Shown in pieces: positions 36,154 through 48,925 of a DNA stretch of 64,000 nt. Source of the DNA: a virus (lineage: Duplodnaviria > Heunggongvirae > Uroviricota > Caudoviricetes); the IMG/VR virus record IMGVR_UViG_3300022719_000283, positions 124,067 to 188,066 of that record; one strand, given 5' to 3'. Numbering within the stretch: position 1 is the first letter of the stretch; each line of letters opens with the position of its first letter. The translations under genes and the position numbers were made by a program. The notes under the pieces were generated by a model. It had not been told where the DNA came from. It saw only the letters and a list, made by a program, of their open reading frames with translations, and ran no database searches.

Positions 36154-37176
36154 CTAATCTTCGTCGTCGTCGACGTATTCCTGCATCGCTTGGACGAGAA
36201 GCCCGCGCGCAACAGCGTCCAGAGGTTCCCGGGCCGCCCGGATTTCGCTGATCTCGATGGGGAATTTTTTACGTTTGTCCTCGAAGACCTGGGTGAAGAA
36301 CTCAAGGAAGCCGCCGGCCTTGGACGTGCCGCCGCTGACGACGATGGGGATCGGCTTAGGCAACGCGAACTTGCCCTGGATCTTTTTGAACTCGCTCGCC
36401 ACATTGTCGATCGCGTATTCGATCAGACTTTTGTAGTAGACGACCAGAGCTTCCTCTTCCCGACTCTGCGGGTGCATGAGGTTGAGCCCCTTTTCCTTGA
36501 GCGTACACATGCGGGCCTGTGTCGAACCCGTGGACTTCGCAGCACCGTGGTCTAACCAATCACCGCCCCTGGCAACCGAAAAACTCAACCCTTCGATGGT
36601 GCCCATTGCAAGTGCGACGTTCGTCATCCCGCTCCCGAAGCTCATCCCGATGCCGGAGAACCCATCCTTCGCACATTCGGAATAGATGATGGCCAGCGCC
36701 TCGTTACTTGGGTACGCCTTGTAGCCGCATTCGGTAACAATGCGCTCAAGAACACCTTGGTGATAGACCACATCTCGGTCCGGGTCGTCGACAGGGGCGG
36801 CCGGCACTGAAAAGTAGCAGACCTCGTTTTCGGCCTTCGGCTCACCCAGCACGTGCTTGACGAGGATACCAAGGATCTCGAGGGCGTCGATTTCCCCTGC
36901 CGAGATGAGTCCCGACTGAAGAGGACGCCGAACTTCCCGGCTGAACATGTTGGCCATGTCATAGGCCGCATCGCCCACGATAACTAGGCCATCCTCGGTT
37001 GTCACGTAGTTGACACCGGAAAGCTTGAGCATCTTGCGGTGTTCCGACGGCAGATCAAGGAAAGCATCACGAATGCGGTTCGTGATGACGCCTTCCCTGG
37101 TACGCCGGGCAGCGACAATATTCATGGTGCCCATGTCGAGCCCAACTCCGAGCACTGGATTTTCACTATCGCTCAT
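36154..37176 (-). CDS. Actin-family ATPase (MreB/FtsA/ParM-like)
   Basis: Phosphate-1 GLDMGTMN, connect-1 NEALAII, phosphate-2 GMSFGSGMTN, adenosine motif VVSGGTS; 340 aa. Confidence 0.85.
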   Translation of the reverse strand: MSDSENPVLGVGLDMGTMNIVAARRTREGVITNRIRDAFLDLPSEHRKMLKLSGVNYVTTEDGLVIVGDAAYDMANMFSREVRRPLQSGLISAGEIDALEILGILVKHVLGEPKAENEVCYFSVPAAPVDDPDRDVVYHQGVLERIVTECGYKAYPSNEALAIIYSECAKDGFSGIGMSFGSGMTNVALAMGTIEGLSFSVARGGDWLDHGAAKSTGSTQARMCTLKEKGLNLMHPQSREEEALVVYYKSLIEYAIDNVASEFKKIQGKFALPKPIPIVVSGGTSKAGGFLEFFTQVFEDKRKKFPIEISEIRAAREPLDAVARGLLVQAMQEYVDDDED

Positions 37177-40480: not shown

Positions 40481-40720
40481 CTACCCACGCCCCTGGGACT
40501 TGGCCTTTTCATCTTCAATGAGGATTCGGCGATGAGCTCGTAGCTCCGAAAGGAAATTGTCGAAATGTGTCCCCACACGGTCTGCCAGGGTGAGAGTCCG
40601 GGCGTGCTTGACCACACTGGGGAATTTCTCGAAAGACCAGAACACATTTCCGTCCTGGTCCGTGTACTCGTAAACTCGAAGACCCTTGGTGACCGCCCCT
40701 TCTTTCAGAGAGCTCATCAC
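40481..40720 (-). CDS. Hypothetical protein (79 aa)
   Basis: GTGA overlap with the upstream stop; AGGAGGAG RBS. Confidence 0.65.
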   Translation of the reverse strand: MMSSLKEGAVTKGLRVYEYTDQDGNVFWSFEKFPSVVKHARTLTLADRVGTHFDNFLSELRAHRRILIEDEKAKSQGRG

Positions 40721-41319
40721 ATCTCCTCCTTTGGGTTCCTGGTCTCCTCACTGTCTTCAGGAAGCACAGCCTGGGCATCCCGAAGATTTTTCTCTTCCCT
40801 AAGCTGCTCGATGATCTCGTCGAGATCGTCTTCGGCCTTGTCGATCTGAACGATCTGCTGCTCGAGAAGCTCACGGGCAGCGTCCGCAGTTTCTTCTGGC
40901 TTAGCTTTTTTGACTTTGACCAGAGCATTTTTCTCGCGCTCTTCGACGATCTCCTTGACCTTTTGCTTATCGTGGCACTTCCCTTCGAAAACCATCGATC
41001 CGAAAGGGCATCTCTTCTTGGAGGACACACCTCCACCAGCCTTTTCCGAAACCGGATCTTCCCCTCCGGTGCCCTCGACCCCTTCTCCCTCACCCTCTTC
41101 TTCTTCGCCGTCATTAACGGCCTCGGCTTCCGATGACCCGGTTTCGAAACTCTGGACTTCTACGTGTTTCTCGTCGTTTTTTTGAAGATCCTCTTCAACC
41201 AAAACCACAAAACGATCCGGCAACGCCGCACCATCTTCTTTGGGGCTCTGCGAGAGACAGGAGATCGAGAACAGCAGGAGGCTACTGTGGACGATCGCGG
41301 AGTAGCTTCTTGACCTCAT
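40717..41319 (-). CDS. Possible lipoprotein or secreted protein with acidic linker and coiled coil
   Basis: MRSRSYSAIVHSSLLLFSISC signal with imperfect lipobox; overlaps the upstream TM gene by 38 nt. Confidence 0.55.
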   Translation of the reverse strand: MRSRSYSAIVHSSLLLFSISCLSQSPKEDGAALPDRFVVLVEEDLQKNDEKHVEVQSFETGSSEAEAVNDGEEEEGEGEGVEGTGGEDPVSEKAGGGVSSKKRCPFGSMVFEGKCHDKQKVKEIVEEREKNALVKVKKAKPEETADAARELLEQQIVQIDKAEDDLDEIIEQLREEKNLRDAQAVLPEDSEETRNPKEEM

Positions 41320-41587
41320 CGATCTTTTCATCCACATTGTCGAGCTTGCCTTCGAGCCGTACAAGTGTCAGCGTGTTCTTCTGAACCGTGTCCGTCACAT
41401 CGGCAAGTTTGTCCAGATCCTCTTGGAGCTCGGTGATGCGCTCATCCTGAATCGCGTTGTTCACTTCCAGCTTGACACCCCAAATGATCAACGGAATGAC
41501 AAGCCCAGAAAGAACCTTCAGGACGATGTCGAGGATTTTCGAGGTTGCATCTTTCGACGCACCGCTGGAACCAGAGGACGACGGCAT
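41282..41587 (-). CDS. Single-TM plus coiled-coil membrane protein (holin-like or i-spanin-like)
   Basis: ILDIVLKVLSGLVIPLIIWGV hydrophobic helix followed by a heptad-rich tail; AGGAG RBS. Confidence 0.6.
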   Translation of the reverse strand: MPSSSGSSGASKDATSKILDIVLKVLSGLVIPLIIWGVKLEVNNAIQDERITELQEDLDKLADVTDTVQKNTLTLVRLEGKLDNVDEKIDEVKKLLRDRPQ

Positions 41588-41624: not shown

Positions 41625-41984
41625 CTACCGAGACCGTTGAATGCTCGCCATCAGGTAGCGAGCCGTCACACGCGCCACTTTATTCAGCTCGAGTTCATCC
41701 CCAACGCTCTTGACCCAGCCAGCTCGTTTCAGCGCGTCCACCGCCTCCTGAAAAAACTCCACCCCTTCGTTGTGAAAGGGGTAATGGCGGCTGATGTCTT
41801 CGCTCATCGTTTGCAGATTGACCGTTTTCTCCGCAGGAAGGTTCTCTAGATAGCGAAGAACCATGCTCTGAGCCTGTTTAAGCTGGTCACCACCGAAGTC
41901 GTTGCGAAGATCGGTCCACTCCACGCGCCGAGGCTCGAGGTCACCTCTGAGGAATTGCCAGGTTTGTGGTTCACGGAGTGGCAT
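41625..41984 (-). CDS. Hypothetical protein, possible winged helix, ending in KVARVTARYL
   Basis: GGAG RBS; ...EAVDALKRAGWVKSVGDELEL resembles a wHTH wing. Confidence 0.6.
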   Translation of the reverse strand: MPLREPQTWQFLRGDLEPRRVEWTDLRNDFGGDQLKQAQSMVLRYLENLPAEKTVNLQTMSEDISRHYPFHNEGVEFFQEAVDALKRAGWVKSVGDELELNKVARVTARYLMASIQRSR

Positions 41985-42142: not shown

Positions 42143-42469
42143 TCACCGGGAGGTGTCCATTTCGTGAATCTCCTGCGCCCGCAGGTACACCTCGTCGTGG
42201 CGACGACACGCCTCATCGAGCTCGTCGACGGGCTCGCGGTCGGGATTCCCGTGGCCCGGTCCACAGTGTTCGCCATACCACTCAAAGTCGAGTCCCGCGG
42301 GATAGGGGTCCTCGTAGCTGCATGTGAACGCCCGTACCGTGAAAACGATCGCGACGCCGAGCGTGGCAAGGAGCGGGGTCTTCCGATTCCACACGAGCTG
42401 CCACGCTCGCTTGGCGAGCGACAAATCGGCCTCGCGTAACTGCTCGGGTTGTTCCTGTCTCTCTGCCAC
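42143..42469 (-). CDS. Membrane-anchored phospholipase A2-like protein
   Basis: WYGEHCGPG (Ca-binding loop) and PVDELDEACRRHDEVY (catalytic His-Asp helix); N-terminal hydrophobic segment PLLATLGVAIVFTV; GAGAGG RBS. Confidence 0.75.
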   Translation of the reverse strand: MAERQEQPEQLREADLSLAKRAWQLVWNRKTPLLATLGVAIVFTVRAFTCSYEDPYPAGLDFEWYGEHCGPGHGNPDREPVDELDEACRRHDEVYLRAQEIHEMDTSR

Positions 42470-42492
42470 CTGCTCGGCCTCTCACCGTGTGT

Positions 42493-42535
42493 CCTGCGAG
42501 GCTCTGGGTCCTGGGCAGGACCCAGAGCCGGCAGG
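42493..42535. promoter_or_regulatory. Strong hairpin between the lipoprotein and PLA2 genes
   Basis: GGCTCTGGGTCCTG/CAGGACCCAGAGCC perfect 14-bp inverted repeat, extended by CCTGC/GCAGG; no U-tract. Confidence 0.55.
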
Positions 42536-42545
42536 GACGTGCATG

Positions 42546-42989
42546 TCAGTCCAGCGAAGAGATGCAAGCATCCGCCACACAGCAACGCTGTGCGTCTGCG
42601 GGGCACGCGATGAGGTGCTCGATGCAGTCCACCCAGCCGCAGTCCGGGCAACCGCCCGTGCACTGCGTCTCTCCGCGGCAGTTGGGAATGACCTTTGCCG
42701 CCTCCTTGACGGCCGCGTCGTACCGAGCGACCTGATCCGGCGTGCGCTCTACCTCAGCCTCCTTGGCCTTCGGCAGCGAGCTGTCGTCAATCTGGTCCCA
42801 CTGCACGCGAGTCGCCTCGCAGTTCGTGGGTCTCACCGTCGCCGCCATCGTCTCGGTCGTGATGACCGCGTTCTCGACGGCCTTCTCTTCCTCGACCTGT
42901 TCGGGCGGCTTGGGGTCTGGCTCCGGTGCCGGGCTTGGAGGACATCCTCCGAGAACCAACAAGGAGATCAACATCATAGAGCCCCTCAT
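42546..42989 (-). CDS. Cys-rich lipoprotein
   Basis: Lipobox LLVLGGC, Pro/Glu linker, Cys-rich C-terminus; ATG 42977 is an alternative start. Confidence 0.7.
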   Translation of the reverse strand: MRGSMMLISLLVLGGCPPSPAPEPDPKPPEQVEEEKAVENAVITTETMAATVRPTNCEATRVQWDQIDDSSLPKAKEAEVERTPDQVARYDAAVKEAAKVIPNCRGETQCTGGCPDCGWVDCIEHLIACPADAQRCCVADACISSLD

Positions 42990-43597
42990 CCCGGTCCTCC
43001 GTTCACGGGCGCCTGCATGGCGACCAGCAGACGTGCACGACGGATCTTTGCGGTATTCGATGCACCCACGCGACGCCAGTTGATGGCGATGGTGGGAGAA
43101 TCCCCTGCCGAAAGCTGAACGATCGCGCTGCCCGAAAACGATCTGTAAAAATCCGAGCTGCTCGAAGTGAAACCGCGCTCGGTGCCGTTATAGGTGACCT
43201 GCGCGAAAACCCCCGACCCACCAAGCAGAGTGTCCACCCCGATCTCGCAGTACCACGAAATGAGGTAGTCCCCTTCTGGCAGCGGTCCCGTGCTGAGGGT
43301 CAGTTTCTCCTGGTAACTCGTGTCTGTGGTCGTGCTCTCAGCCTCGCTAAAAACTCTCTGCACGGTGTCAGAGAAGGCAACGCCCTGGTGAGCGGCGACG
43401 ATACCGTCCAGTGTCGTCTTATCAGCACCACTCAGTGCGTCAACGAAAGTGATGTCCACGTCGTCGTTGAGCACCGAAATACCGACGAGCGCCGTGGTGA
43501 TGGAGGACCCCTCGATCTCTGCGGTCAGGACATCTGTATTGACAGCCTGGTTCGGGAAATCGATCTGGAGGTCGTAGTTGTACGTGGTCTGTGGCAT
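42986..43597 (-). CDS. Virion decoration protein: shared N-domain plus C1q/TNF-like jelly-roll
   Basis: N-domain ending DALSG..KTTLDGIVAAHQG; C-domain ESTTT.TSYQEKLTL...GDYLISW...AKIRRARL. Confidence 0.7.
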   Translation of the reverse strand: MPQTTYNYDLQIDFPNQAVNTDVLTAEIEGSSITTALVGISVLNDDVDITFVDALSGADKTTLDGIVAAHQGVAFSDTVQRVFSEAESTTTDTSYQEKLTLSTGPLPEGDYLISWYCEIGVDTLLGGSGVFAQVTYNGTERGFTSSSSDFYRSFSGSAIVQLSAGDSPTIAINWRRVGASNTAKIRRARLLVAMQAPVNGGPG

Positions 43598-43601
43598 GGA
43601 A

Positions 43602-44747
43602 TTAGCTTCCGTTTCCTTCGTCGGTCTCCTGGCCGTAGTAGGTCAGGGTGAGAAAGTGGCCGCCGTAGGGGACGTCGCCGACGATTCGACCCTCTGCACG
43701 GTTGAAGGTGATCTTCTGAGGAGCAATGTTTTTGTCCACATAATTTGGAGTTGCGTAAAAAAGATCCGAGCGCGCGTACTGCCATTCGAACGTCCACTTG
43801 GGAGAAGAAACTCCTCCCGTGCCTCCAAACCCCGAAGGAAGAGGCCCCCAGAACCGACGCGCAGCGGCCTGAAAGTCATGGAAATTTTTGTAGGCCCGAA
43901 ATCCAACCTCGACAACGTTGCCTCCAGTCAAGGTCGTGTGGCTCCCGTGAAGAGCAGTTCGAAACACCTCCGTCATGTCCACGTCTTCGGAAGCATCAAT
44001 TTCGGCATCCTCAAAACTCCATTTTTTGCCCGCCGGGGGTTGAAATGTGTACAGGCTTGACCCCGGAGTGCGATAAGAAACGGTCACGACCTCACTGGGT
44101 TGTCGTGCCACTGCGAAAGTGATGACGCCGTTTTCGTAATCGATGACGTACCTGTCATCTCCAGAATCAGTGTCCTCATTACTTTGCTCAAGGGCCACAT
44201 CGTCGACCTTCACAACAGGCACGAGATGCGTCATCGTGTTGCCGTTTGGCGCCACGGTACTTTCATTAAGGTCGTCTTCAAAGGTGAGACGACCGTGCCG
44301 AACATCGATCATTTTGTCACCGCTATCAAGCGTGTAAACCGTTTCGGATACGCTGGAGGTGGTCGACCCGTCCACCACTTCAGTGCTCTCTTGCCACCAC
44401 GAGCACGAGTCGCAGAAATTGTGGGTGACCTTGCGGAACCCTCCGCCAACGGGGACGACCTGAGCCACGAGAAGGTTGCCTTGGATGTCTTTTTTCTGCG
44501 CGAGTGGGTCCGGAATCGGTTCTCCGCTGTGGGCTGCAACGATGGCGTCCAGGGCAGTCTCTTCGCCGGATGGAAGCGCATCCTTGAAAAAAACCGTACA
44601 GTCGTCGTTGGCCACGTCCGTTTCAATACGATCCAACGCGATCGTAATGTCCGTGCTCTGACGAATCTCGCGGTCGAGGCGATCAGGAGAGACCTTCTGG
44701 TTCGGGAAATCGAGACTGATGTCGTAAAGGTAGGATGTTTCTGCCAT
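43602..44747 (-). CDS. Virion structural protein with shared N-domain
   Basis: DALPSGEETALDAIVAAHSG; YVIDYENGVITF beta motif. Confidence 0.7.
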   Translation of the reverse strand: MAETSYLYDISLDFPNQKVSPDRLDREIRQSTDITIALDRIETDVANDDCTVFFKDALPSGEETALDAIVAAHSGEPIPDPLAQKKDIQGNLLVAQVVPVGGGFRKVTHNFCDSCSWWQESTEVVDGSTTSSVSETVYTLDSGDKMIDVRHGRLTFEDDLNESTVAPNGNTMTHLVPVVKVDDVALEQSNEDTDSGDDRYVIDYENGVITFAVARQPSEVVTVSYRTPGSSLYTFQPPAGKKWSFEDAEIDASEDVDMTEVFRTALHGSHTTLTGGNVVEVGFRAYKNFHDFQAAARRFWGPLPSGFGGTGGVSSPKWTFEWQYARSDLFYATPNYVDKNIAPQKITFNRAEGRIVGDVPYGGHFLTLTYYGQETDEGNGS

Positions 44748-44756
44748 GGTTCGCTC

Positions 44757-46610
44757 CTAAACCGCCGTCACGCGCACTAGCTGGAGGCACCGATCGAAGG
44801 CGCTGGCGGTGCCAGATCCGCCCGTGTACCAGTAGACCTGGACGCTGTCCCCGGCCGTGAGCGAGAGGCGTCGAGTGGTGGCCAGCACCTGTGTGTACCC
44901 GGCCGCGTTCACCTGGGTGTGGCGCTCGGTGCTCGCCTGGAAGGTGCCGTTGACGTGGATCCGCATGCGGACGCTCCACCCCGCGAGACTGTTCTCGGTG
45001 TAGACCGAGAAGATGGCGAGGTAGCTGCCGGTGGCCGGGGCCGTGAGCGTCATGCCGGTCATGGCCACGGGGGAGGTCGCAGTGGTCGTGATGGTCGAAC
45101 TCGACACCACCTCCTGGCAGTCCGGGGGAGCCGCCGTGGCCGACACCTGGAGTGTCTCGTTCCCGCCGTCATTCTGCTCCGTGAGCGTGATGTTCGTGCC
45201 CGCGACGAGCTTGCCATTGAGGTATCCGGCCGTGGTATCGTTCGCCGATACCTTGACGAGCTCGTCTCCTCCCCCGCCGCTTTGATCGGCCGGCTGCCAC
45301 TCAGACGCAGCATCGTTCCAGACCAGCACCTGGTTGTTCGTCGGTTGCGTCGAAGAGACTGCCCTTCCCTGAATCTGTTCGGCATCAATGCCCGCTCCAA
45401 TGCCGATCCTCACAATAGAAAGACCACTCCCGCCCGCAGCCGTTTCAATCACCGAAGTCCCTGCGAGCTGGATGGCCTGGAGCTTGAGTATGTCCCCCGC
45501 TGAAAGGTTAAGGATGGCGAGGAAGGATCCTGTGTTTGACCCAGCTCCTTGGGTGCGGTTGTACAACCACACGACGGTACCCCCCACAAGACCGAAACCG
45601 GAACCCGCGTCCAGCACGAGTATGCCTGCACTTTCAGAACGGCTGGTGCCGCCAGTCGCAGGGATCTCCGTGGAGACATGCCCGTAGACCAGGTACGTGG
45701 CTGTCGTATTGATCGTGATCGTCGGCTGGCCCGCCGTGTGAGAGTAGTCGGACCCCACGATACGCTGCGTGTCCAGGGGGATATCAGTGAGCACACCTGG
45801 GATGGTGGTGCCGCCTGCGTTATCGTACGCCTCAAAATAGTTGGACGTGTCCCCCGAAGCCGTCGTCGTGAGGATCCAAGACGCCGCCCCCACGGACGCA
45901 TCGACGCAGACGAACTCGTCTCCGGTCGTGGTGTTGATCCAGCGAGACCCGACCGCGTAGTCCTGCGTCGAGTCATCGCCGACCGTGGGTGATCCGGCCG
46001 TCTCGTTCGTCTTAATGCCGGCGTAGGTCGCCGGTCCAGTGCGAGTGAGGATAGCTGGATACGTGCCTGAGAAGTCGCCGTCCATGACGGCCCCGGCCGC
46101 TGCGACGTTAGCCGCATCGGTCACGTCTGCCCCGGCCTCGACACCGTCGAGCTTTGTGCCGTCCGTGGCCACGTCACGGCCGTCCACGGTCCCCGGGACG
46201 GAGACGTTCCCCGAGTCGTCCACGGTCACGCCCGATCCTTGGACGAGTTTCCCGGTCGTGCCGTCGAACCGGACCACCGCATCATCGGTCGAAGCCCCAG
46301 GACCCACTACGTCGCCCTGACCACCGGACTGCTCCACGTTGGAGACCAGCTCAGGACTCAGGTTGTTTTGGAGAGGCACGTCCGTGCTGGTGAGCTGGAT
46401 CGTCCCCGTCTGCGCCGACGTGAGCGTGACCGTCAGTTCATTCCTCGCGTTGCCAGGCGTAAGGGCGATGTCGCTGATCAGGTCTGCACGGGACTCCGCG
46501 TCGATCAAGACGCGAACCGCCACCGCGAACCGATTCAGGTTGTGCGTGACGATGATCGTATCGGTAGCGGTAAAGTCTTGTCGGAAAAGTTCGTCGTATC
46601 TGCCCGCCAT
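44757..46610 (-). CDS. Modular fibre protein with two C1q-like domains
   Basis: Fibre-type motifs GDVVGPGASTDDAVVRFDGTTGK, DGRDVATDGTKLDG, IQGRAV....PTNNQVLVW, KVSANDTTAGYLNGKL. Confidence 0.7.
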   Translation of the reverse strand: MAGRYDELFRQDFTATDTIIVTHNLNRFAVAVRVLIDAESRADLISDIALTPGNARNELTVTLTSAQTGTIQLTSTDVPLQNNLSPELVSNVEQSGGQGDVVGPGASTDDAVVRFDGTTGKLVQGSGVTVDDSGNVSVPGTVDGRDVATDGTKLDGVEAGADVTDAANVAAAGAVMDGDFSGTYPAILTRTGPATYAGIKTNETAGSPTVGDDSTQDYAVGSRWINTTTGDEFVCVDASVGAASWILTTTASGDTSNYFEAYDNAGGTTIPGVLTDIPLDTQRIVGSDYSHTAGQPTITINTTATYLVYGHVSTEIPATGGTSRSESAGILVLDAGSGFGLVGGTVVWLYNRTQGAGSNTGSFLAILNLSAGDILKLQAIQLAGTSVIETAAGGSGLSIVRIGIGAGIDAEQIQGRAVSSTQPTNNQVLVWNDAASEWQPADQSGGGGDELVKVSANDTTAGYLNGKLVAGTNITLTEQNDGGNETLQVSATAAPPDCQEVVSSSTITTTATSPVAMTGMTLTAPATGSYLAIFSVYTENSLAGWSVRMRIHVNGTFQASTERHTQVNAAGYTQVLATTRRLSLTAGDSVQVYWYTGGSGTASAFDRCLQLVRVTAV

Positions 46611-48925
46611 CAGAGCACCTCCCCCAGGGTCCAGGTCACGGAGATGACCTCCAAGGAGACGACGAACAGGTCCGTCGCCGGGAACCCGTCGTCATCCAGC
46701 TCGAGGCGGATGAAGATCGAGTCGCCCTCGTAGTAGTCGGCGATGTCAATCACTCCGAAGTCGATGCAGTGGATCTTGTTGACCGTCGTCTCTGGCAACA
46801 TCAAGGTCGTATCCGCACCCGGGTTCGCCGTGATCGTGTCCGTGTTGGCGTCGGTGCGAGCCACGGGCACGGAACCTCCCGCAGGGTCTGCCACCAGGAT
46901 CCCCGAGACCTCCTGGGGCAGCACCGAGAGGATGACCGTGGGCGCAGTCGTGGACGAGTTGTTGTTGACGCCGTAGTAGAACCGAAACCGCAACGGATAC
47001 GCCGTGCAGATGCCCTTCGGCAGCACGAACTGGGTGTATATCGCGTCGCCGCTGCTGTTGAGCACCGAGTTCTTGATCTCGTGCGTCCACCCGGTCGGAA
47101 GGCCGCCTGATCCCACGGAGAAGTTACCGTCGGTGACTCCGCCGGACTCGCCAAAGATGTTGCCCGATCCAAATAGGGTCTCTCGGTACAGGGCCGTGCC
47201 ATAGAAAGCCAGCTTGCCGTTGACGTTGATCGCCGTCCGGGAGTCGCTCAGTCGCCACTGCTGGAACACGGGAAGCGTCGAGACTGCGGACGTGATGCGG
47301 ACCCGTGACCAGTAGGCGTTCGTGCCATTGATCGTTTTCGTGGCCCAAGTCGTAGAGGACGTGACGCCGAGCCGCAGGTTCTCACAGGACCCCGTGCGCA
47401 GGAACACGACGTTCGCGTAGCTGAAGAACTGCTCGTTGCAGGTGGCGTGTGCGCCGACCTCGACCCACCCGCTTCCGTCCCAGATCTCGAAGATGTACAC
47501 ACCTCCGATGCTCCCGATCGTCTGTGTGCTCTGCCAGCCGAAGATCTTGCGGAGGTCCGACGCGTCGGACAGCGTGGAGGCGACCAAGATCGAGTGTCCT
47601 GCGCCGACGCCCTGGAACGTGAACGTCGAGCCCGACCCGCTCGCTGCGGCGGCAGACACGTCCGTGAAGTTACCCCCGTCGGACGACGGGCTGGCCGTGT
47701 CGTCGGTCGTCAGCACGACCATCCCGCGCGTGTAGCCGTCCCCGCGCCCGAAGGCTGCCTCTGCGCCCGCCTCCGGGTGCCCCACGTGCAGCTCCCCCCA
47801 GATGGACAGCGCGGTGTCGTGCGTGAGCGTCGAGGAATCGTCCTGGAACGTGAAGGTCTGGTCGGCCTCCGCGGCCCACGCCCCGGGCACCGAGATTTTC
47901 GACTCGGACAGTTCCCCTCCGATGATGTGGAACGTCCCGGCCGTGAGTCCGGGATCCACGAGGATGTCGAATGTCGAGGCGTTGAGCCGAGGGGATCGAA
48001 GCTGCACGTTGGCGGAGTCGCTCGTGACGTGGACGCCGTTCGTGCCGGTCTGGAAGTTGAAGTCCGATCCAACGACGGCCCCGGCGCCGACCTCCAAACA
48101 GTCGGTCACCGTGGGAGGGAAACCGACGTTGATGCTGTCGGCGATCAGAGACCCTCCGGCCACCCGGATGAAGTCCGCGGCAGTACCGGACGACATCAAC
48201 GTCTGAGAGATGATCAGTTGACCCCCCGACACCTCGAACACGGCATCGCAGGTCCCCGCGGCGTACTCAGTGCGGTCTACGATCATCGCCCCGGAGTTGG
48301 AGTTCTGTATGCCGATCCCGGACGCGCCCTGCCCCTGGAGGCCGATCTCGGACACGTTGGCGCGCTCGCCAATCCCTCCGGCGAAGGACACGGCCGGAGT
48401 CGCGTCCGTGGGAAGCACGACGAACATCTGCCGGATAGACGAGCCGTTGCTCATCGTGATGCGCGTGCCCGTAGCGCCCGACCCGGAGATGACGGTCGTC
48501 CCGCCCCCGTACGCGCCCTGCATCGTGACGTTCGCGGGGACCGTGAAACTCTCGGCGTAGGTTCCGGGGCCGATGAGGATCACGTCTCCGCTCGAGGATG
48601 CCGTGATCGCGTCCGCGATCGTACCGTAGCGGCTCACCGTGGAGCCGCTGATCAGCGTGATCCCGGCCGGACTGGCAGAATCCTCCTCGGGGTCGAACGT
48701 GGCTACGCCCGTGTGGGCGGCAACGACGGCGGTGAGGGCCGTTAGCTCGGGTCCCGACAGCGCGCTGACGAAGTCAATCTCAAGCAAGTCTTGGCCCACG
48801 TCCACGGTGACCCAGTTGAGCGTGGTCGTGATGGTACCCTCCGCCAGGATCTCCTGGTGGAGACTGGAAGCATCCACGACCCCATTCAGAGTGTCCGTGG
48901 AGATCGTGTAGCTCTCGATGGCCAC
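46610..48925 (-). CDS. Fibre/tailspike with pectin-lyase-like beta-helix (possible depolymerase)
   Basis: YGTIADAITASSSGDVILIGPGTYAESF helix-cap motif followed by Gly/Val-rich rungs; shared N-domain (LTAVVAAHTG). Confidence 0.65.
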   Translation of the reverse strand: MAIESYTISTDTLNGVVDASSLHQEILAEGTITTTLNWVTVDVGQDLLEIDFVSALSGPELTALTAVVAAHTGVATFDPEEDSASPAGITLISGSTVSRYGTIADAITASSSGDVILIGPGTYAESFTVPANVTMQGAYGGGTTVISGSGATGTRITMSNGSSIRQMFVVLPTDATPAVSFAGGIGERANVSEIGLQGQGASGIGIQNSNSGAMIVDRTEYAAGTCDAVFEVSGGQLIISQTLMSSGTAADFIRVAGGSLIADSINVGFPPTVTDCLEVGAGAVVGSDFNFQTGTNGVHVTSDSANVQLRSPRLNASTFDILVDPGLTAGTFHIIGGELSESKISVPGAWAAEADQTFTFQDDSSTLTHDTALSIWGELHVGHPEAGAEAAFGRGDGYTRGMVVLTTDDTASPSSDGGNFTDVSAAAASGSGSTFTFQGVGAGHSILVASTLSDASDLRKIFGWQSTQTIGSIGGVYIFEIWDGSGWVEVGAHATCNEQFFSYANVVFLRTGSCENLRLGVTSSTTWATKTINGTNAYWSRVRITSAVSTLPVFQQWRLSDSRTAINVNGKLAFYGTALYRETLFGSGNIFGESGGVTDGNFSVGSGGLPTGWTHEIKNSVLNSSGDAIYTQFVLPKGICTAYPLRFRFYYGVNNNSSTTAPTVILSVLPQEVSGILVADPAGGSVPVARTDANTDTITANPGADTTLMLPETTVNKIHCIDFGVIDIADYYEGDSIFIRLELDDDGFPATDLFVVSLEVISVTWTLGEVL

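Follow-up and report, generated by a model that had tools for sequence, protein, structure and literature searches.

How can a phage protein of 108 amino acids, whose chain ends soon after its catalytic motif, be a phospholipase A2 (PLA2), and what could a tailed phage do with such an enzyme? The question is raised by one gene in the window analysed here, a stretch of 64,000 nucleotides covering positions 124067-188066 of a 618,736-bp IMG/VR phage record (92% complete by CheckV). We call its product mini-PLA2. Taken as a whole, the account that seems to us somewhat probable is that of an active, permuted, three-helix enzyme which would cut host lipids late in infection, most likely at lysis. 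Within it, we infer the enzyme activity, the compact geometry, the location, the calcium gating and the lysis role.

Identification of the gene and its homology to secreted PLA2

The mini-PLA2 gene lies on the minus strand at window positions 42143..42469 and is defined by its ORF, Pfam and PDB alignments, and family conservation. Its start codon is GTG, and a ribosome site of GAGG type lies about 10 nt 5′ of it. A promoter scan around the gene gave nothing exceeding shuffles. An earlier note, made from the letters alone, had read in the 108-aa ORF the motif YGEHCGPG of a calcium loop followed by a His-Asp helix, and the ORF, Pfam and PDB matches confirm this reading. Residues 64-74 are WYGEHCGPGHG and residues 82-95 are DELDEACRRHDEVY. 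Judged by its sequence, the motif is well beyond chance.

A profile search against PLA2 families, proposed in the same note, matched both PF00068 (E 1.3e-5, 26.1 bits) and PF08398 (E 3.2e-4, 21.4 bits) significantly, each below its Pfam gathering cut-off (32.1 and 23.9 bits, respectively). In PHROGs only an unannotated family was found. When all PDB sequences were searched with phmmer, about 60 chains of snake-venom and pancreatic secreted PLA2 (sPLA2) matched, the best with E 1e-5, and mini-PLA2 residues 48-101 were aligned onto PLA2 residues 9-58. The protein also scores 57.5 bits with an HMM made from 89 conventional bacterial PF00068-type proteins.

In group I/II PLA2 the standard numbering identifies the residues that ligate calcium, those that catalyse, and the hydrogen bond between Tyr52 and Asp99. 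How many of these residues are found in mini-PLA2? According to Pfam, the PDB alignment and conservation, the calcium-binding loop is W64-G74 (42248..42280, minus strand). Here Y65-G66-E67-H68-C69-G70-P71-G72, together with D92, align to PLA2 residues 25-32 and 49, so that H68, G70 and G72 correspond in the phmmer PDB alignment to the calcium carbonyl ligands Tyr28, Gly30 and Gly32. The catalytic helix, residues 83-107 (42149..42223, minus strand), is delimited by alignment, conservation and AF2. The C-C-x-x-H-D-x-C-Y pattern of the superfamily reads A87-C88-R-R-H91-D92-E-V-Y95 in it. By the same alignment H91-D92 (codons at 42194-42199, minus strand) would be His48-Asp49, the catalytic pair and calcium ligand, and Y95 would be Tyr52, which hydrogen-bonds Asp99. 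C69 and C88 take the places of Cys29 and Cys45, which form a disulfide; none of the six further pairs of group I is present. Opposite Cys11 stands C50, for which there is no partner Cys.

The Pfam, PDB and HMM matches therefore support the claim that the phage encodes a PLA2 homologue in which calcium loop and HD dyad are intact. Mini-PLA2 is very probably a true PLA2 homologue. As far as sequence can tell, it is a genuine member of the sPLA2 superfamily in which only three helices and the calcium loop are left, and its active-site residues suggest that it is probably an active enzyme.

Relatives and their distribution

With a word-indexed search we obtained 15 relatives, 94-118 aa long, which share 56-74% identity with mini-PLA2 and are all metagenomic. 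An exhaustive search of representatives brought 66 proteins at E<=0.001, among them a set of 83-112 aa with the same layout and identities down to about 30%. For the conservation analysis we used an alignment of 38 sequences, 25-71% identical to the query. Seven residues (G66, C69, G70, D85, C88, H91 and D92) are invariant in all 38, and near-invariance extends to D15 (37/38), L18 (36/38), P71 and D82. Over 38-52 diverged sequences neither the C69-C88 pair nor the residues of catalysis and of the calcium loop vary, and H91 is unchanged in 52 as well. Homologues lacking the HD dyad, which the earlier note had named as evidence against its reading, did not appear; every homologue keeps the dyad. 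At E<=0.001 PF00068 is matched by 33 of the 38 family members (best 7.3e-9) and PF08398 by 26.

The family profile further detects ordinary PF00068 proteins of bacteria (110-210 aa), including P0109 of Dermatophilus congolensis, which bears the NCBI name "phospholipase A2 family protein". One further match, P0018 (1215 aa, 18 matched stretches), was set aside as repetitive and probably a spurious translation.

Which organisms carry the short form? The 50,697 deposited phage genomes of INPHARED gave no tblastn match to the family. Representative bacterial genomes held no close relative and only conventional PLA2s, mostly in Methylobacterium. In IMG/VR, five huge-phage contigs carry mini-PLA2 relatives; the other matches there were rejected as family members, being VP1-like conventional PLA2s of 450-620 aa on contigs of 2-7 kb. 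Fused long forms of the family were not found in these searches. As far as could be seen, the family is confined to uncultured phages within the data searched, and it has therefore escaped experiment so far.

Three sequences met in these searches deserve separate mention. In an 82-kb relative (L012:6900-7230) the N-terminal helix and the remainder of the PLA2 gene stand in different frames, owing either to an indel of one base or to faulty assembly, and its 62-aa remainder is what the database lists as P0022. An RHS/YD-repeat protein (L211:1758-3416) has a C-terminal PLA2 tip (WYGNYCGPG...HDACY) that stops 7 residues past the HD dyad, and its sequence suggests a possible further case of a PLA2 that has no helix 3 downstream, here in the setting of a polymorphic toxin. 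The metagenomic protein P0180 (570 aa) has a PLA2-like match and the precomputed Pfam domains PF00729 and PF11729, which we take to be the tombusvirus-type coat domain and the nodavirus capsid domain. If these identities are right, it may be an RNA-virus capsid protein carrying a PLA2 module.

Evidence for a probable circular permutation

The C-terminus of mini-PLA2 comes only 13 residues after HDxxY, and the C-terminal third of a PLA2 is absent. All of the 56 short family members end likewise, no more than 27 residues after HD and with no downstream helix. Because the chain stops so soon after HDxxY, the helix 3 that bears Asp99 is missing from its usual place. Where, then, could its counterpart be?

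The conventional bacterial relatives (n=89) have HDxCY, then 8-12 residues, then the motif CxCD(K/R)xL. At the N-terminus of the short members there is instead a conserved helix with the motif (R)EAD(K)xLA, which in three distant proteins reads CECDKELL in P0044, QCDMKLI in P0048 and KCDLALI in P0049, that is, as the helix-3 motif. In mini-PLA2 this N-terminal amphipathic helix comprises residues 2-28 (42386..42466, minus strand), and AF2, conservation, an HMM test of permutation and Cys covariation lead us to propose it as the equivalent of PLA2 helix 3. Always-hydrophobic positions (14, 18, 19, 22, 25 and 26) form a single face of it with D15 (codon at 42425-42427, minus strand) at the centre, and this central place on the apolar face marks D15 as a probable buried Asp.

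In the HMM test, each short protein's own N-terminal helix was appended behind its HD helix and the result was scored against the HMM of the 89 conventional proteins, with 30 shuffles for each sequence. The calcium-loop/HD core of the short proteins gives about 53 bits against this HMM. Moving the helix behind the HD helix raises the score over that of shuffled helices with a mean z of 3.8; z exceeds 2 in 42 of 54 sequences, and 3.5% of the shuffles are as good. In the permuted arrangement the Asp of the helix falls on the CD column of the conventional HMM. Mini-PLA2 itself (P0001) reaches a z of 1.8, with 2 of its 30 shuffles scoring equally high. Its own signal is thus weak, and the claim of permutation rests on the family alignment.

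Covariation between the two ends of the chain gives further indications. A Cys before the N-helix Asp occurs only together with the Cys in HDxCY (3/3 versus 0/51), a pattern that matches the Cys51-Cys98 disulfide of ordinary PLA2. A Pro before this Asp coincides with loss of the Tyr52 equivalent in 7/7 cases. The covarying sequences may reflect just one or two evolutionary events.

From these comparisons we consider it quite probable that the family arose by circular permutation of PLA2, which moved helix 3 to the N-terminus. The usual order of helix 1, calcium loop, helix 2 with His-Asp, and helix 3 with Asp99 would have become helix 3, helix 1, calcium loop, helix 2. The N-terminal helix would then supply the buried D15 as the partner of H91, and we propose D15 as the equivalent of Asp99.

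Hydrophobic helix and predicted structure

The second helix, residues 33-49 (42323..42373, minus strand), is the hydrophobic one, and AF2, hydropathy and the PDB alignments suggest that it is the equivalent of PLA2 helix 1 and a membrane-inserting surface. The earlier note had described the protein as membrane-anchored behind one hydrophobic helix. The helix is real, but we do not favour the anchor, as it would split the D15 helix from the catalytic half.

The best 19-residue Kyte-Doolittle mean of this helix is 1.4-2.3 in the huge-phage clade, which is transmembrane-like. The same helix in distant members gives 0.2-1.3 and is amphipathic, with the N-helix Asp still kept. The uninterrupted apolar run is of about 13 residues and is followed by invariant R46 and then by invariant C50. 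The PDB alignments place the end of the helix (residues 48-50) on PLA2 residues 9-11. Since the helix ends there, with C50 on Cys11, it is best read as the helix-1 equivalent. As such it would line the substrate channel, and in the huge-phage clade its hydrophobicity would suffice for insertion into a lipid leaflet.

With respect to D15, the membrane-spanning and compact readings are mutually exclusive. If the helix is a type II signal anchor, residues 33-49 span the inner membrane with the N-terminal helix in the cytoplasm and the calcium-loop/HD half in the periplasm, which offers calcium and disulfide formation, and at lysis this half-domain would attack the inner membrane from its outer leaflet. 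The hydropathy of the close clade (1.4-2.3 over 19 residues) fits such an anchor, as do the charges, with R29-K30 before the helix and acidic residues after it in agreement with N-in topology. The conserved C69-C88 pair would suit an oxidising compartment, the conventional bacterial relatives have a cleavable signal peptide at the equivalent position, and the neighbouring genes code for envelope proteins. However, an anchor would part the near-invariant D15 helix from the active site, and the apolar run is just about 13 residues long with the invariant Arg next to it. Moreover, the distant members, in which the helix is amphipathic (0.2-1.3), retain the N-helix Asp, and AF2 packs the three helices confidently. 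We therefore favour, as fairly probable, the compact, leaflet-inserted protein, and regard the signal anchor as unlikely, with perhaps a quarter of the weight.

Other routes of export were also considered. No cleavable signal peptide is evident in mini-PLA2. C50 was rejected as a lipobox cysteine on the ground that the preceding residue is often V, F or I in relatives, and a cleavable Sec site (VRA/F) on the ground that its position -1 is not conserved (A, S, V, T or P). A Tat signal (N-R-K) is unsupported: the consensus motif is absent, and relatives do not all keep the twin basic residues (P0010 has QK). SAR-type release to the periplasm was judged unlikely, as a charged N-terminus of 32 residues would have to cross the membrane.

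What do the structure predictions add? The full-length AF2 model, built on the 38-sequence alignment, is compact with all three helices (2-28, 33-49 and 83-107) packed together (pLDDT 88.9, pTM 0.81). Residues 29-108 modelled without the N-terminal helix give pLDDT 89.1 and pTM 0.54; this drop of pTM is soft evidence, as pTM varies with chain length. For the full-length model, Foldseek against the PDB returned nothing significant (best E 2.9, generic helical bundles), and VIA-align against 48,161 chains returned generic helical bundles only (Z<=7). For the truncated model, the sole Foldseek match in the whole PDB was cobra PLA2 1poa, with a non-significant E of 4.9 over 37 columns (rmsd 1.9 A, 43% identity), and VIA-align found no match. 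Both programs were assumed to follow chain order; on this assumption a permuted chain would not align whole. A PLA2 fold is proposed from sequence homology; the structure searches have brought no significant confirmation of it.

These structure searches bear on another explanation, namely that the protein is an inactive PLA2-like module which binds calcium or lipid, for instance as a membrane tether or a fibre assembly factor. Fold searches without a significant PLA2 match are in its favour, together with scores under the Pfam gathering thresholds, the absence of a beta-wing and the loss of most PLA2 disulfides. However, inactive PLA2 homologues typically lose Asp49 or His48, as the Lys49 myotoxins do, whereas the present family keeps the His, the Asp, the calcium-loop glycines and the N-helix Asp down to 25% identity, as catalysis predicts. 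We hold an inactive module to be improbable, at about one chance in ten.

Genomic neighbourhood

Every window gene that we examined lies on the minus strand. Eight related huge-phage loci were available for comparison of gene order, three from exact look-ups and five from IMG/VR. This comparison, which the earlier note had suggested as a check, showed the PLA2 gene following fibre genes at all eight loci. Seven of them keep the order fibre-like, PLA2, p119, the TM-coiled-coil protein (101 aa) and an overlapped lipoprotein (175-225 aa), and it continues with p79, p138, p527, p199, p284, an actin-like gene and p420. Of this order the exception, L006, retains the fibres and the PLA2 gene alone; the pair of TM-coiled-coil and lipoprotein genes is lacking there. 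The PLA2 gene precedes the neck genes, and in L001 and L006 it is translationally coupled to the fibre-like gene.

Directly upstream of the PLA2 gene in relatives there are always fibre-like genes. In the window four of these (203, 381, 617 and 771 aa) occupy 42986..48925 on the minus strand, and at least three share an N-terminal module. Between them and the PLA2 gene stands a 147-aa lipoprotein (42546..42989, minus strand) with an LGGC lipobox and a Cys-rich C-terminus, outside the conserved unit. It has a counterpart at none of the eight related loci (0/8) and no Pfam match, and is peculiar to the source phage; the region 42470-42989 looks like a recent insertion. About ten Cys are found in the last 50 residues of this lipoprotein, and a 14-bp perfect inverted repeat lies after its gene at about 42500-42529. 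A split enzyme that takes helix 3 from the lipoprotein was considered and rejected, the lipoprotein being absent at 8/8 loci and having no Pfam match. Of the late-operon setting described earlier, an all-minus block of late virion genes near TM/coiled-coil and lipoprotein genes stands, but the 147-aa lipoprotein is not a conserved part of it.

Downstream of the PLA2 gene at seven of the eight loci comes p119, a soluble 119-aa protein (41625..41984, minus strand) ending in KVARVTARYL. In relatives its C-terminus reads KVARVTRRF, and by eye only its body is winged-helix-like. Further on, the actin-like protein of 340 aa (window 36154-37176, minus strand) matches Pfam PF25216 "Volactin" with E 8.4e-77. 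At the seven loci with a preserved downstream block its identity is 68-92%, and its gene always stands after neck-like genes; by sequence, it is a conserved actin-family gene within the virion block.

Candidate lysis genes and the possible time of action

One gene beyond the PLA2 gene, at seven of the eight loci, lies a spanin-like pair. An overlapped or embedded gene pair that codes for a TM-coiled-coil protein and a lipoprotein is the architecture of a two-component spanin. In the window the i-spanin-like member is a 101-aa protein with an N-terminal TM and a coiled coil (41282..41587, minus strand; 65-88% identical in relatives). The o-spanin-like member is encoded by an overlapping gene (40717..41364, minus strand) whose true start is probably downstream of the TTG; it has a signal peptide with lipobox, after which come two conserved Cys and, at the C-terminus, a coiled coil. 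This overlapped architecture is present in all six loci examined. An automated scan found the lipobox in five of the six, and in L009, where the longest-ORF start hid it, it was recognised by eye. For this pair no match to a spanin family was obtained. The TM-coiled-coil protein keeps its 65-88% identity where fibres are only 25-55% identical, which is unusually strong conservation for a spanin.

Is there a lysis cassette here? The sole endolysin candidate found in the 619-kb genome is a 429-aa protein with PG_binding_1 and Amidase_2 domains (G000:C1 ~601.3-602.6 kb, L088:1204-2493, minus strand), about 435 kb from the PLA2 gene. It adjoins a 201-aa gene that is thymidylate kinase-like by eye only, and it does not stand in a lysis cassette. 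No holin was found near the PLA2 gene, and Phage_lysozyme, SLT and Peptidase_M15_4 gave no match in the phage's own genome. The GH19 search of this genome was empty, and so was its control everywhere, which makes it uninformative. On a 6-kb metagenome contig one distant short PLA2 stands two genes before an Amidase_2 gene.

The spanin-like neighbours and this one amidase neighbour suggest lysis as the time of action. Mini-PLA2 would be produced late in the cytoplasm along with the fibre genes and would be held idle there by low calcium. On arrival of calcium it would cleave phospholipids of the host membrane at the sn-2 ester, and the likeliest moment for this would be lysis, together with the spanin-like pair. 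Against a lysis role we count the candidate endolysin 435 kb off, the lack of a nearby holin and the absence of the spanin-like pair from L006. We thus regard a role in lysis as possible, at somewhat less than even chances.

The same neighbourhood may be read in another way, with mini-PLA2 as a virion-borne entry enzyme like that of the parvovirus VP1 unique region, which would travel with the tail or head, inside or on the surface, and breach a host membrane at infection. The gene always comes after fibre genes and before neck genes, it is coupled to the fibre-like gene in L001 and L006, the product has no signal peptide, and L006 retains the PLA2 gene without the spanin-like pair; all this would agree with entry. 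However, no fused virion domain and no long fused family forms were found, and a very hydrophobic protein of 108 aa would be an unusual virion component. We think an entry enzyme rather unlikely, with somewhat over a quarter of the probability.

A stronger form of the lysis account can also be put forward. Natural permutation may have given the smallest self-contained PLA2 (83-118 aa), which serves huge phages as a calcium-triggered, lipid-hydrolysing lysis effector and stays inactive at the cytoplasmic side of the membrane as long as the envelope is intact. In this full form the proposal is doubtful, with something under one chance in three. If it is true, mini-PLA2 would add to holin, endolysin and spanin another class of lysis protein with a function of its own, and direct lipid hydrolysis would join the known routes of tailed phages through the bacterial envelope.

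Comparison with known systems

Among the papers listed by a full-text literature search combining circular permutation with phospholipase A2, none appeared from its title and abstract to deal with a permuted PLA2. In the ESM Atlas, Uroviricota clusters of about 95 aa are automatically named as PLA2-domain proteins with a score of 0.76. They serve as leads only, but the names mean that databases have already flagged such proteins, without study. If permutation and activity hold, the family shows how small a PLA2 can be with its active site still working, and offers enzymologists a natural experiment on the rewiring of the His-Asp-calcium machinery.

Among the literature searched, phage lipid hydrolysis is touched only for the unrelated TtaP/DUF1353 family (PMC11525133). 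TtaP (PF07087) is a PLA2 of the typhoid-toxin islet with prophage relatives (Gartly et al. 2024, PMC11525133). It is small, stays cell-associated, is linked with phage-type muramidase genes and is related to group XIV enzymes; the paper mentions prophage DUF1353 proteins and has the streptococcal prophage SlaA among its references (PMC11525133). Mini-PLA2 resembles TtaP as a small bacterial or phage PLA2 but relates to PF00068/PF08398 rather than to group XIV, and PF07087 does not match it in Pfam even at E<=10.

The neighbouring pair shares its overlapped gene architecture with the spanins Rz/Rz1 of lambda and LysB/LysC of P2. It differs from them in a lipoprotein 3-4 times longer than typical o-spanins and in a TM protein that is 65-88% conserved.

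The PLA2 of the parvovirus VP1 unique region (group XIII, PF08398) is likewise virus-encoded and a minimal YxGPG...HDxxY enzyme. Proteins of PF08398 carry these motifs at the N-terminus of a capsid protein, whereas mini-PLA2 has the motifs in a stand-alone gene, scores 21.4 bits against a cut-off of 23.9, and possesses a Cys pair. In the parvoviral enzyme the loop is followed by the HD helix and then by the Asp helix, unlike the order proposed for mini-PLA2.

The closest comparison is with sPLA2 of groups I/II and the bacterial PF00068 enzymes (cobra 1poa, bovine 1bp2 and P0109). With these mini-PLA2 has in common the calcium loop, His48-Asp49/Tyr52, Cys29-Cys45 and the Asp-x-x-Leu helix motif. 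In contrast to them, its core is of about 75 residues without a beta-wing, it has one disulfide rather than six or seven, it lacks a cleavable signal peptide and it remains below the Pfam cut-off. Its putative Asp helix stands before the remainder of the domain, where in sPLA2 it stands after.
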